A DNA stretch of 64,000 nt from Candidatus Poriferihabitaceae bacterium (GCA_965213885.1 OZ243919.1:511733-575732), one strand, 5' to 3'; positions 18,122 to 21,444 are shown, counted from the first letter of the stretch. Notes: generated by a model from the letters alone, not told the origin. Numbers and translations are program-made.

Positions 18122-19672
18122 TTGATTTCAAACGGATACACTACCAAGATTGAAGTAGAATGGAAAGTAGCAGACGCGATGCTCGACGAGGCGGCCCGGG
18201 CAGGAACTGATCATGTGATACAAGTCATACCTTCGCAAGTCCCTCATGGATGGTGCCAGCTTGACCCAGCGAGGCGCTTCGGTGCTGTGTTCGTCATTCT
18301 GTGCCTTTGGGCACCACTGTCTATATCCGCCTCTCCTGTGAAGGCAGGTGATCTTCTTGCCTGCGCTGCCACGATTTGCGATCTGACGCTGAAGGACGCG
18401 ATTGGGCTGGCACTGCAACGTAATCGGCCGCTTCTCAACAGCCAGCTCGACCGGGAGGTGCAGAGATTTTCACTGGACGTGGCCGAGGACCGCTGGACCC
18501 CTCAATTTTCCGTCGGCCCCTTCGCTAGCAGTGATCGACAAGACCAAAAGGCCGGAGTAGGCGCCCAGATGAGTCTGCGTGTTCCCACTGGCGGCGCATT
18601 CGCGCTCAGATTTGATCAGAACCTGTCCGAGGAGTTCGATGACTCCGGATCGCAGACTCTCAGCTTCTCCCAGCCTCTACTAAAAGGAGCTTGGGCCAAT
18701 GTCGACGGTGCAACCGTGCGGCGGGCGCAACTTCAAGAGCAGATCAACATCCTGGCCTTCCGTCAGACGGCGGAGGACCTGGTTGTTGCCGTGACCAGGG
18801 CATATCGGGCACTGATCGGAGCAGTACGCCAAGTGGAGATTAGTGAGACCTCATTGCAGCGTGCCCGCGAGCAGCTTGAGGCGACCCGCGCGCTGATCAA
18901 CGCGGGACGTGTAGCACGACGAGAAGCTGGGCGGTCTGAAGCGGCAATCGCGACCAGGGAACTGGCGCTGGTGCGGGCTCGAAACCGTCTGGAGACTGCA
19001 CAGTTCGACCTGATTAACATACTGGAGCTGGATAGTTCGTTCCGAATTCGTCCGTTGGAGGAATTGATGGTTGAGCGGCAGGATGCTGCCTTTGCACCGG
19101 TACTCGAGGACACGCTGCGCCACCGCGCTGATTATCTCCAGGCCGGGTTGCGGGTAGAGATCGCCAGGATCGGATTGGCGGTGGCTCAAAACAATCGGCT
19201 GCCGGACCTTGACTTCCGGCTCGAATGGAGCAACGACGATGCTGGACAAACAGACACTATGGTGCGGATGGACGCTACATTTCCCCTGAACGACCGGGTG
19301 CCCGAGCTTGAGCACCTCAGGGCTAGTAATGCACTCAGGAAGGCGGAGAGGAGCGTCGTTGAATTGCGTGAGTCGATCGAGGCTGCACTGCGTCAGGCGA
19401 ACAACAATGTCGAGGTGAATGTTCGTCTGACCGAGCTGGCGCGCGATGGGCGCGTGCTGGCAGAGAGCAATCTGGCAGTAGAGGAGGCGAAGTTCGGTCA
19501 GGGCCTGTCGTCCACCTTCGAGGTGGCGGCTTCCGAGGAGGAGTTGGCCCGGGCAGAGCAGGCCGAAGCAGACGCGATACTCGCCTGGCTTGATGCGCTG
19601 ACACACCTCGACCGTATTTCCGGACGAACGCTGGACCGCTGGGGCATCCAGTTGGAGGTGATCTCGCAATGA
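18122..19672 (+). CDS. TolC-family outer membrane efflux protein (true start probably downstream of 18122)
   Basis: Signal-like segment RRFGAVFVILCLWAPLS; motifs LTLKDAIGLAL and FSQPLLKG; two helical OEP repeats (NNRLPDLD, KFGQGLSSTFEV). Confidence 0.88.
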   Translation: MISNGYTTKIEVEWKVADAMLDEAARAGTDHVIQVIPSQVPHGWCQLDPARRFGAVFVILCLWAPLSISASPVKAGDLLACAATICDLTLKDAIGLALQRNRPLLNSQLDREVQRFSLDVAEDRWTPQFSVGPFASSDRQDQKAGVGAQMSLRVPTGGAFALRFDQNLSEEFDDSGSQTLSFSQPLLKGAWANVDGATVRRAQLQEQINILAFRQTAEDLVVAVTRAYRALIGAVRQVEISETSLQRAREQLEATRALINAGRVARREAGRSEAAIATRELALVRARNRLETAQFDLINILELDSSFRIRPLEELMVERQDAAFAPVLEDTLRHRADYLQAGLRVEIARIGLAVAQNNRLPDLDFRLEWSNDDAGQTDTMVRMDATFPLNDRVPELEHLRASNALRKAERSVVELRESIEAALRQANNNVEVNVRLTELARDGRVLAESNLAVEEAKFGQGLSSTFEVAASEEELARAEQAEADAILAWLDALTHLDRISGRTLDRWGIQLEVISQ

Positions 19673-21444
19673 CCGGTCGTGCCCCGGAAATTTACCGAGC
19701 GCTTCTGGAGAGCCTGAGCGACGGGGTGATCGTCATTGATTTCGACGGGTCGATCAGGATGACCAATGCTGCCTTCTGTCGAATGTTCGGGTTCGACTCC
19801 GATGAAACAATCGGGCGCTCCTTTGGCGAGCTTTTTGTCGAGTTCGAGGGTTTCGACGAGTTTGTCCAGATTATCTTCGACGCCGTTATCGAACGCGGAG
19901 AAATCGCACGGCGCATCACACGGGTTCGCATCGGCGATGAGCCTCGATCCCTGTCCATCACTACCTCCTGTCTGATGTCGGAAGAAGCCTCCCAGAAGAA
20001 GCGGGTAGCGATGATCGCCGTGGTCTCCGATATCACGGAGGTCCGGGAGTTGCGCGAGACCGAGCTGCGCCAGGCGACGGTGATCAAGACGCAAATGGGT
20101 GATCTCCAGGACGCCTATCGTGAACTTGAGGCCAAGAACGAGACGCTCTCGGCAATGACGAGACGCGTTCGCATGGTGCGTGGCGTCGCGATGGTTTTCG
20201 TCCTGATCGTATTCCTCAGTATCGGCGTCTGGTATGTTCGGCCGCTGGATTTATTCAGTGCCACTGCGCTCCACGCACGTCCGGACACCGAAGTTGGCAG
20301 CCTGGAAGCGCTGCAGACGGTGACGGTCACACCTCGCGAACTTCGTTCGACCATCGCGCTTCAGGGCCACCTCGCTCCGGGACGGGTCACCGAGATCGTG
20401 AGTCCGGTTGACAGCCATGTAAGTGCGGTGCATGCAGTGCCCGGGAATCGGGTGGCAGAAGGTGATCCGCTGATCGATCTCGACACAGGCCAGCTTGTCG
20501 AAGATCATCGGCGGGTCCAGGTCGAGCAAATCAAGGCGCGCGACAAGCTTGTCGAAATCGAGAACTGGGAGAACAGTGCTGACATGACGCGCGCACGGCG
20601 CGCCTTGCGACGGGCGAAGATCGCGCTCGATGACGCAGAACGGGATCTCGGGAGAACCACTTTTCTTCTGGAGCAGGGACTTGTTCCTGCTTCGCAGCAC
20701 GAAGATGCGCAGCGGCAGCGGCAGAACCGGATTCTGGATGTCGAGGAGGCCGAGCGGGAGCTGAAGGTGATAAGGGCACGGGGCGGTGACGAGGCGATGC
20801 GGGTGGCTCAGCTGGAAGCCAGGACAGCCGAGGATCGCCTTCGCGTACAAGAGAGAAGACTGGACCTGGCGCGCATCAGGGCACCGATCGCTGGGGTTGT
20901 CATGGCGGTGGACAGTCCAAGGTCCAAGTCTTTGACGAAGGGTCGCCCAGTGGCACAGGGGGAACAGCTGCTGAGTATTGCGGATCTGGAGCGCCTCTCT
21001 GTGGTCACGAGCGTGGACGAGGTGGACATTAGGAAGGTCGGGGCTGGCCAGCAGGCCTGGATCACTGGCCCCGGGTTTCCCGGTCTGAAGATCGAGGGAA
21101 TCGTGACCCGCGTCTCTTCGCGGTCAGATTCCAGTAGGCGGCGGCGCAACGCACCACAATTCGAGGTTGTCGTCACACTGGACAGGCTGGAGGCAGAGGC
21201 TGTTGACCAGTTGCGAGTGGGTATGTCGGCTCATGTCACCATCGTCGTTCATCACCGTCCGGCGGCCCTGCTGGTACCGATCGATGCAATCGAGCAGGGA
21301 GATGACAAGGCTTGGCTGCGTGTCATCAACGGGGGGAGTGGTGTCGCAGAGCGGCGCGCGGTCGAGCTGGGTCTCACTACGCTCGACTCGGTCGAAGTGG
21401 TGAAGGGTCTCTTACCCGGCGATAAAGTTGTCCTGTCCCGATGA
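19669..21444 (+). CDS. PAS domain - coiled coil - TM - MacA/HlyD-type periplasmic adaptor fusion
   Basis: N-terminal PAS (LLESLSDGVIVIDFDGSIRMTNAAFCRMFG...VSDITE); TM GVAMVFVLIVFLSIGVWYV; adaptor motifs VAEGDPLIDLD, IRAPIAGVV, VDEVDIRKVGAGQ, LRVGMSA and VEVVKGLLPGDKV. ATGA overlap with tolC. Confidence 0.88.
   Translation: MTGRAPEIYRALLESLSDGVIVIDFDGSIRMTNAAFCRMFGFDSDETIGRSFGELFVEFEGFDEFVQIIFDAVIERGEIARRITRVRIGDEPRSLSITTSCLMSEEASQKKRVAMIAVVSDITEVRELRETELRQATVIKTQMGDLQDAYRELEAKNETLSAMTRRVRMVRGVAMVFVLIVFLSIGVWYVRPLDLFSATALHARPDTEVGSLEALQTVTVTPRELRSTIALQGHLAPGRVTEIVSPVDSHVSAVHAVPGNRVAEGDPLIDLDTGQLVEDHRRVQVEQIKARDKLVEIENWENSADMTRARRALRRAKIALDDAERDLGRTTFLLEQGLVPASQHEDAQRQRQNRILDVEEAERELKVIRARGGDEAMRVAQLEARTAEDRLRVQERRLDLARIRAPIAGVVMAVDSPRSKSLTKGRPVAQGEQLLSIADLERLSVVTSVDEVDIRKVGAGQQAWITGPGFPGLKIEGIVTRVSSRSDSSRRRRNAPQFEVVVTLDRLEAEAVDQLRVGMSAHVTIVVHHRPAALLVPIDAIEQGDDKAWLRVINGGSGVAERRAVELGLTTLDSVEVVKGLLPGDKVVLSR

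Follow-up and report, generated by a model that had tools for sequence, protein, structure and literature searches.

Gene organization around the PAS-adaptor fusion

The DNA analyzed here is a 64,000-nucleotide stretch from Candidatus Poriferihabitaceae bacterium (GCA_965213885.1, OZ243919.1:511733-575732; hereafter the window, with positions counted from its first letter). It carries an operon for a putative tripartite ABC pump in which the periplasmic adaptor is joined, in one open reading frame (ORF), to an N-terminal PAS domain. The operon comprises four genes in the order tolC, adaptor, ATPase and permease:

18122..19672, plus strand: operon gene 1, outer-membrane factor, TolC-like, OEP family (Pfam OEP, 97.4 bits in 2 stretches); the real start may lie downstream of 18122
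19669..21444, plus strand: whole PAS-adaptor fusion gene, intact ORF of 591 amino acids (aa) plus stop
21483..22223, plus strand: ABC ATPase, MacB/LolD-like nucleotide-binding subunit (ABC_tran, 127 bits)
22238..23437, plus strand: MacB-type permease (MacB_PCD, 106 bits; FtsX, 71 bits)

MacB is split here into an ATPase gene and a permease gene, which correspond to positions 4-223 (at 1.9e-76) and positions 264-645, respectively, of the 648-position MacB model PRK10535. The ATG of the fusion gene at 19669 shares letters with the TGA stop of the OEP/TolC-like gene (caATGAcc), GGAGG is located 9 nucleotides (nt) 5′ of this ATG, and GGAGGG precedes the start of the ATPase gene. An earlier interpretation of this DNA, made from its letters alone (hereafter the sequence-only reading), had described the fusion as one intact frame translationally coupled to tolC, and the 591-codon ORF at 19669-21444 with its ATG/TGA overlap (ATGA) agrees with that description. 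The gene set of a MacAB-TolC-type pump, namely an adaptor, an ABC_tran ATPase, a MacB_PCD/FtsX permease and an OEP protein, was found together at the locus, and the fusion product is predicted to be the adaptor of such a pump. The G+C content of the operon region (18-30 kb) is 0.57-0.61, slightly below that of most of the window (0.62-0.68). It falls to 0.51 at 23600-24199, an intergenic region between the permease gene and the first of the Cys-rich genes described below.

Domain architecture and predicted structure

The fusion product was divided into the following parts:

19681..20031, plus strand: cytoplasmic PAS domain, aa 5-121 (four Pfam PAS models over cut-off; AlphaFold2 fold)
20029..20040, plus strand: DITE motif, aa 121-124, at the PAS/helix junction (conservation in 69 sequences)
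20032..20181, plus strand: juxtamembrane signalling helix, aa 122-171 (heptad pattern; core motif LQxAY at 146-150)
20182..20238, plus strand: single transmembrane (TM) helix, aa 172-190 (hydrophobicity profile; AlphaFold2 helix unbroken to residue 186)
20239..20316, plus strand: variable, probably disordered periplasmic tether, aa 191-216 (predicted local distance difference test score, pLDDT, below 50 at 190-213)
20317..21441, plus strand: periplasmic MacA-like adaptor, aa 217-591 (Foldseek, TIGR01730)

Four Pfam PAS models scored above their gathering thresholds within aa 7-127 (PF00989, 45.6 vs 22.6; PF08448, 45.3 vs 23.1; PF13188, 40.4 vs 21.8; PF13426, 35.8 vs 27), as did the NCBIfam model sensory_box TIGR00229 (52.8 vs a cut-off of 22.9). 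Pfam HlyD_3 and HlyD_D23 matched at aa 239-507, and the NCBIfam RND_mfp adaptor model TIGR01730 scored 124.7 against a cut-off of 94.9. The score for the MacA equivalog NF008606 stayed below its cut-off (59.6 bits vs 342), and so did that for the HlyD-type adaptor model TIGR01843 (42.1 vs 208.65); the partner transporter is of MacB type. The adaptor is MacA-like by fold and context without being a MacA orthologue.

An AlphaFold2 model of the whole protein, built on an alignment of 69 sequences (mean pLDDT 82.9), has a PAS fold (aa 5-121), an uninterrupted helix (123-186), a tether of low confidence (190-213) and a four-domain adaptor consisting of a lipoyl domain, a long alpha-hairpin (274-399), a beta-barrel and a membrane-proximal domain. 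A separate model of aa 1-171 reached a pLDDT of 85.1, and the five-stranded antiparallel sheet with flanking helices that defines the PAS fold was present in the models at a pLDDT of 83-85. When the whole model was compared with the PDB using Foldseek, the best match was MacA in MacAB-TolC (9qgy_G, E 2.5e-25; 5nik_D, 2.1e-22), followed by the adaptors AcrA, MexA and EmrA (range of E, 1e-25 to 1e-13). For aa 1-171 the best matches were short LOV proteins with a J-alpha helix, LOV-histidine-kinase chimeras, YF1, NifL, FixL and DosP (E about 1e-8 to 6e-7, identity 17-25%); at least 500 matches had E <= 0.001, and the top ones listed were chiefly PAS/LOV proteins.

R165, R166, R168 and R171 stand just ahead of the hydrophobic stretch at aa 173-190. 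As the positive-inside rule applied to these four arginines at 165-171 places the preceding residues inside, and as the adaptor must be periplasmic, the PAS domain is assigned to the cytoplasm, which gives a cytoplasmic part of 171 residues. The tether on the other side of the membrane has a mean pairwise identity of 31%.

The sequence-only reading had proposed an N-terminal PAS domain ending in a DITE motif, about 45 aa of coiled coil, a single TM helix at nt ~20182-20238 and a complete MacA-like adaptor. The first is borne out by the Pfam and NCBIfam models over cut-off, the AlphaFold2 PAS fold at aa 5-121 and DITE at 121-124, the TM helix by the hydrophobic stretch and the predicted helix reaching residue 186, and the adaptor by the TIGR01730 score, the four-domain fold and MacA as best Foldseek match. 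A helical segment does follow the PAS domain, but its length was measured as 50 residues (122-171) rather than ~45.

Occurrence and conservation of the fusion

The full-length fusion was found in 70 of 72 related loci (L009-L080), the matches in L076 and L077 being partial. The order tolC, adaptor, ATPase, permease was kept in 69 of these 70 loci, with a TolC-like homologue directly upstream of the adaptor gene in 69 and the ATPase and the permease each present in all 70; L026 gave no adjacent tolC match with the window query. The ATPase and permease are fused in one ORF in L026 (9856-11850) and L062 (9749-11665), as in E. coli MacB. For the alignments designated A2 and A3, L039 and L060 were excluded because automatic frame extension met a stop, as were L016 and L022, near-duplicates of L015 and L021; L026 and L062, with their fused ATPase-permease, were excluded from A3.

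The homologue search returned 221 proteins at E <= 1e-5 among 8000 candidates scored. PAS accessions were attached to 118 of the 120 homologues listed (54-88% identity, lengths 513-616, coverage 99-100% for most), and the two listed without one are shorter (556 and 513 aa). Scanning of one genome per species yielded 88 relatives, of which 77 distinct loci were kept. A family profile was also run against 1.84 billion representatives (one per 50%-identity cluster), and the best 150 were used; the profile of the fusion's own PAS domain matched 114 of these best 150 representative clusters. The ESM Atlas contained three clusters with PAS-adaptor architecture, with 52, 52 and 65 members. Among 41 genomes near that of the window, full-length matches occurred in 6, its own included, and within its genus in 4 of 13 genomes, so the distribution among close genomes is patchy. 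The database names of the proteins looked up were all generic ('PAS domain S-box protein', 'efflux RND transporter periplasmic adaptor subunit', 'HlyD family...', 'GAF domain-containing protein'). An isolate has also yielded a PAS-adaptor, a more distant one, recorded as WP_425006696.1.

Contigs from four public sequencing runs of one study (X1-X4) cover the stretch without insertions or deletions, and a 496-nt contig, present in X1 and X3 each with 1 letter differing, spans aa 138-302 and thereby the linker, the TM helix and the beginning of the periplasmic region. Because the runs possibly derive from the source sample, they do not count as independent support. Read coverage across the junction and occurrence beyond this assembly were among the points on which the sequence-only reading had made its fusion depend: the contigs cross the linker and TM region free of indels, within the limit just given, and full-length fusions in 70 of 72 loci together with the 114 of the best 150 clusters bearing the same PAS domain place the architecture well outside a single assembly. 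An assembly or fusion artefact is ruled out by the full-length loci, which lie in separate records, and by the contigs without indels. Contigs of co-occurring relatives in X1-X4 differ from window 19803-20661 mostly in the third letter of codons (30 of the 40 variant positions listed), and the fusion gene is under purifying selection. The same runs hold several closely related alleles of the fusion gene.

The whole operon occurs twice on one contig in two cases, L021/L022 (12 kb apart) and L064/L066 (about 144 kb apart), and two homologue pairs with unequal identity to the query (P0007/P0091 and P0080/P0108) may each share one genome. The double operons suggest paralogous systems inside one genome. 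In one 1064-aa protein, P0138, a single sequence on a 13-kb contig, the PAS-adaptor continues as a MacB_PCD permease domain and no ATPase intervenes; the fusion may be genuine or may stem from an error of assembly or gene calling.

The related loci, all in metagenome-assembled genomes, many of them single-chromosome assemblies, and labelled by the submitters' titles, came from Gammaproteobacteria, including Candidatus Poriferihabitaceae (87% identical), from Alphaproteobacteria (Paracoccaceae, Rhodospirillales, Thalassobaculaceae, Aestuariivita), and from Candidatus Binatia, Acidobacteriota, Thermodesulfobacteriota, Arenicellales and Pseudomonadales. In a quick FastTree gene tree of 69 rows the phyla were intermixed: the five Binatota rows required five changes, and one Binatia row had a Paracoccaceae row as its sister, each on a branch of 0.03 changes per column. 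This mixed-phylum tree would fit horizontal transfer, short of proof. Two candidate taxon names among the related loci allude to sponges, and Poriferihabitaceae is named in the accessible part of a sponge genome note.

A conserved, heptad-phased helix links the PAS domain to the membrane

The helix at 122-171 is the most conserved region of the protein, with a mean pairwise identity of 63.7% vs 51.7% for the PAS domain, 47.0% for the TM helix and 54.3% for the adaptor. For pairs with less than 45% overall identity, the values were 52% for the helix, 37% for the PAS domain, 32% for the TM helix and 41% for the adaptor. At its start, the DITE motif is conserved among the 69 sequences at 100% (D121), 91% (I122), 93% (T123) and 97% (E124). 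L, I or V occupies positions 139, 146, 153, 160 and 167 ('d' positions), and A, L/M, Y, N, T and R occur at 136, 143, 150, 157, 164 and 171, respectively; N157 at an 'a' position is 90% conserved. Many exposed charged positions of the helix (E124, E127, R129, E130, E132, R134, Q142 and E154) are at least 94% conserved.

The length of the helix was measured as the distance between the D of DIT and the A of AY. A previous anchor, the last basic residue before the TM peak, was noisy (peaks at 50/47/45 and 43/40/38) and was replaced by this one. The distance was 28 in all 67 family rows with both motifs (69 rows examined). Among 96 representatives taken because their PAS match extends to the last profile position, it was 28 in 46 cases, 21 in 13 and 7 in 1, which accounts for 60/60 of the measurable ones. 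Helix length thus varies only in multiples of seven among the measured cases. In kinases and cyclases, coiled-coil transmitters coupled to PAS domains typically have linker lengths that preserve phase after the DIT junction, and PAS-DIT-coiled-coil linkers carry signals in histidine kinases, cyclases and engineered LOV kinases.

The sensor domain is exchanged upstream of the same helix

In about 25 of the best 150 representatives, the alignment to the family profile does not begin before position 109-141, and 130-305 additional residues lie upstream. Twenty-four of the 150, chiefly those with a late-starting alignment, were scanned with Pfam. A GAF domain preceded the adaptor in 17 of the 24 (one GAF being partial), GAF+PAS in two, PAS+GAF in one and a cNMP_binding domain in one; the remaining three showed another PAS domain, no sensor domain and the putative PAS-adaptor-MacB_PCD fusion P0138, one each. 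The profile of aa 122-171 matched the GAF and cNMP variants immediately after their sensor domain, and in the alignment a common core, Q..LQ.AY..E..N..L....K/R.....R, stands ahead of the TM helix in the PAS, GAF and cNMP forms alike. Judged by this alignment, the sensor-to-membrane helix is homologous across the three forms.

Genomic context was examined for one GAF form, at L095, where the operon consists of OEP, GAF-adaptor, ATPase and MacB-permease genes. Directly 3′ of that operon lies a gene for a GAF-GAF-GGDEF diguanylate cyclase (L095:8930-10855), which may tie the locus to signalling by cyclic di-GMP.

Proposed relay from the sensor to the pump

We propose, with a probability of roughly 0.55, that the sensor, the coiled coil and the TM helix form a relay that provides one-component, post-translational control of the pump. 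The proposal builds on direct observations: a domain architecture that is conserved, a sensor that is exchanged among relatives and a linker whose length keeps heptad phase. A cytoplasmic cue would bind or act on the PAS domain; the 50-residue amphipathic helix most likely pairs as a parallel coiled coil, and the paired helices would shift register, tilt or supercoil. TM anchors that abut the MacB permease would carry this change to the membrane-proximal region of the adaptor, and stimulation of the ATPase and/or assembly of the adaptor hexamer with TolC would be switched on or off as the outcome. In E. coli, the TM and membrane-proximal parts of MacA stimulate the MacB ATPase. A signalling input is made more plausible by the relatives that swap PAS for GAF or cNMP modules upstream of a homologous helix, and by helix lengths that change only by multiples of seven. 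Dimerization of the helix, the inside-to-outside direction, an output at the level of pump activity and the identity of the cue are steps that we infer.

Several points weigh against the relay. Several close relatives, at 360-490 aa, lack a recognizable sensor module and might be fragments; if they are plain adaptors, the sensor would be dispensable for pump function. Genomic context for the sensor-exchanged forms comes from one GAF locus, L095. The AY motif was not recognizable in 36 of the 96 representatives. Conservation of the charged face exceeds what a bare coiled coil would need, which suggests a further partner and makes the route of the signal less certain. A PAS domain lacking conserved Cys, His and Trp could be a ligand-free dimerization module. 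In addition, PAS domains pair, whereas MacA is a hexamer around a MacB dimer, and three PAS pairs would have to act on a two-fold transporter.

The conserved face of the helix also bears on the main alternative route, in which the helix or the PAS domain docks on the MacB nucleotide-binding subunits and inhibits or licenses ATP hydrolysis. The pump would still be sensor-gated, with no signal crossing the membrane. Such docking would account for the helix being the most conserved region, for the many exposed charged residues conserved at 94% or more, as expected of a protein-protein interface, and for the retention of the helix when the sensor is swapped; moreover, a 50-residue helix of ~70-75 Å (an estimate from 1.5 Å per residue) would bring the PAS domain level with or below the nucleotide-binding domains. 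However, the ATPase carries no family-specific extra domain, and its C-terminal ~25 residues show no majority consensus residue in the alignment; heptad-phased length changes are also more typical of coiled-coil transmission than of a fixed docking surface. Prediction of a complex between the ATPase and adaptor aa 1-171 gave 0.02 vs a mark of 0.32, a result that weighs neither for nor against binding. We regard docking in place of transmembrane signalling as unlikely.

What the PAS domain might sense

Across the 69 sequences, no column of aa 1-121 has His or Trp at 20% or more, and the only Cys columns at that level in the PAS domain are position 37 (68%) and position 101 (32%). LOV photosensors carry their flavin-adduct cysteine in the E-alpha helix, and heme PAS sensors such as FixL and DosP carry an axial histidine on the F-alpha helix. 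F52 (97%) presumably stands at the LOV-cysteine site, as placed by eye. A LOV photosensor and a heme PAS sensor were each rejected, as no conserved flavin-adduct cysteine and no conserved axial histidine were present among the 69 sequences (both motifs placed by eye). With no Cys, His or Trp column conserved, LOV-type light sensing and heme-based gas or redox sensing are unlikely. The sequence-only reading had put forward a ligand, redox or light cue; the cue may be a non-covalently bound flavin or another small ligand. The conserved PAS residues are D18, G19, V20, G27, N33, F52, F56, E60, G61, D63, F65, D71, R93 and L95, and at a guess this mix of aromatic and charged side chains would suit a small-molecule pocket.

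The absence of conserved cofactor-binding Cys, His and Trp is equally what a ligand-free PAS domain would show, one that merely pairs or stabilizes protomers or sets their stoichiometry and takes no part in signalling, and many PAS domains act mainly as dimerization modules. That role leaves unexplained why PAS is replaced on the same helix by GAF and cNMP domains, which have other folds and are typical ligand binders, and why tandem sensor arrays such as GAF+PAS occur; the polar PAS-core residues N33, D63, D71 and R93 (91% or more) would also suit a binding site. A purely structural PAS domain seems rather improbable to us.

Secreted proteins encoded next to the operon

Downstream of the permease gene, the window encodes two paralogous secreted proteins of 278 aa (24045-24881) and 274 aa (26114-26938) with 18 cysteines each. 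They gave no Pfam match and contain, by eye, three internal repeats of about 80 aa. Copies with 83-90% identity adjoin the pump operon in Alphaproteobacteria, Paracoccaceae and Binatia records, and tblastn matches were obtained in 17 of the 70 loci. The Cys-rich proteins may represent cargo of the pump or a trait transferred together with it. Two small Calx-beta proteins, each with a signal peptide, are encoded at 24902-25507 and 25477-25923; relatives of these occur in 29 of the 70 loci, often directly 3′ of the permease gene and in either orientation.

A direct repeat of about 165 nt at window 23953-24116 and 24893-25057 (92% and 84% identity) sets the same upstream region and leader (MSxTPYEIxVMTRAW...) before the unrelated Cys-rich and Calx-beta mature proteins. 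The leader was considered as a dedicated export signal and rejected, being limited to the window and its two closest loci (L009, L010) and derived from local 5′ duplication; secreted neighbours in other loci have ordinary, differing signal peptides. Two further groups of neighbours, clusters 3 (33 loci) and 5 (13 loci), were dropped as candidate conserved genes because they are antisense ORFs over operon genes.

Information might also run from outside to inside, the adaptor reporting the state of transport or assembly through its PAS domain to a cytoplasmic partner, in the manner of transporters that sense for kinases. A partner of this kind could bind to the exposed, conserved side of the helix, and a GAF-GAF-GGDEF gene follows the GAF-type operon in L095. 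Across 73 loci, however, no conserved cytoplasmic partner gene was found, only the Calx-beta and Cys-rich secreted proteins recurring beyond the operon, and nearly all known architectures use cNMP-binding, GAF and PAS domains for input. We consider a signal in this direction very improbable.

Comparison with known adaptors and sensors

MacA of E. coli and A. actinomycetemcomitans (PDB 5nik, 9qgy, 3fpp, 4dk0) is the best structural match for aa 217-591 and shares with the fusion an N-terminal TM anchor and an operon with a MacB-type ABC transporter and a TolC-like channel. It differs in identity (about 20%), in the MacA equivalog score (59.6 vs 342) and in its MacB, which is split here. It also differs in having no cytoplasmic domain, where the fusion has 171 cytoplasmic residues: according to the accessible text of a 2026 adaptor review, MacA 'lacks a cytoplasmic domain' and adapts 'primarily through transcriptional reprogramming', HlyD has a small substrate-binding cytoplasmic domain, and CusB senses metal in the periplasm. 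That adaptors normally have only a short cytoplasmic tail, as the sequence-only reading had held, is in line with the same text, in which MacA has none and HlyD a small one. PAS domains are not mentioned in that part of the review.

Among adaptors of ABC-type systems, the closest precedent in the accessible review text is HlyD, which has a TM anchor and a functional cytoplasmic part; in HlyD this part is a short segment of non-PAS type to which the secreted protein binds, and the transporter is HlyB-type, whereas here it is MacB-type. By analogy, the PAS domain could be a platform that recognizes cargo or a precursor, as the cytoplasmic domain of HlyD binds substrate and triggers recruitment of TolC. 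This HlyD precedent, an ABC-type adaptor with a substrate-binding cytoplasmic domain, is joined by the fact that PAS and GAF domains bind small molecules. The transporter of the fusion, however, is of the MacB_PCD plus FtsX type, and the HlyD-type model TIGR01843 remained at 42.1 vs 208.65. Substrates enter MacB from the periplasmic side and do not come from the cytoplasm, which disfavours a cytoplasmic platform for cargo, and the cNMP-binding variant points to a second messenger instead of cargo. Recognition of cargo by the PAS domain appears improbable.

For the proposed relay, the nearest counterparts on the cytoplasmic side are PAS/LOV sensors (PpSB1, SBW25, YF1 4gcz, FixL and NifL), which share a DIT-type junction followed by a heptad-phased helix. 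The fusion differs from them in its output, a TM helix and a periplasmic pump adaptor instead of an enzyme, in identity (17-25%) and in a PAS domain with no conserved LOV cysteine or heme histidine. CusB of CusCBA, as described in the review text available, is, like the fusion as we propose it, an adaptor that itself detects a signal and sets off pump assembly with no transcriptional step. What CusB detects, by way of its N-terminal tail, is its own substrate in the periplasm, whereas the fusion has a dedicated cytoplasmic sensor domain.

An in silico study of 2015 (PMC4452313) noted, in its accessible part, GAF plus HlyD/biotin-lipoyl proteins in SecA_DEAD/Peptidase_M50 loci and suggested a 'regulatory and sensory role'. 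Those proteins likewise join a cytoplasmic small-molecule-binding domain to an adaptor-type protein, but the part available describes no ABC transporter in the locus, a GAF instead of a PAS domain, and no analysis of the linker. SecA_DEAD and Peptidase_M50 are neither among the neighbours of the fusion (OEP, ABC_tran, MacB_PCD/FtsX) nor among the recurrent neighbours in the 73 loci. The literature search, which left most subscription journals outside its coverage, found no published description of a PAS-adaptor fusion, and the accessible text of two reviews (PMC8277102, PMC4446572) contains 0 occurrences of 'PAS domain' and 'GAF domain'. Earlier characterization of the architecture, which would have refuted the sequence-only reading, was thus not found for the PAS form in the literature searched; the one related item is the GAF-HlyD protein noted in silico in 2015 in another kind of locus. 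A MacAB-TolC-type pump with an exchangeable cytoplasmic sensor on its adaptor, in its PAS form, appears new to the literature searched.

Implications

A wider generalization is possible, which we put forward tentatively and at somewhat less than even odds: a modular class of ligand-gated tripartite pumps, in which swappable PAS, GAF, tandem GAF/PAS and cNMP sensors would gate a MacB-type exporter within seconds and without transcription, the signal passing outward through the heptad-phased helix, and in which the PAS form would have spread horizontally, often with secreted Cys-rich and Calx-beta proteins as possible cargo or partners. Given the mixed-phylum tree and the co-transferred secreted proteins, the operon is also a candidate for a trait that co-occurring bacteria share. 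The idea lends itself to a direct test in the cNMP-binding variant, whose ligand can be guessed.

Tripartite pumps are thought to be regulated mainly at the level of transcription, and the exceptions sense their own substrate, CusB in the periplasm and HlyD at the transporter. If the class outlined above is real, it would represent the first known case of inside-out signalling through a pump adaptor and would add a new level of control, the metabolic or second-messenger gating of export, with a sensor that is exchangeable as in histidine kinases. It would also provide a natural system for the transfer of a signal from the cytoplasm to a periplasmic machine through a single TM helix.

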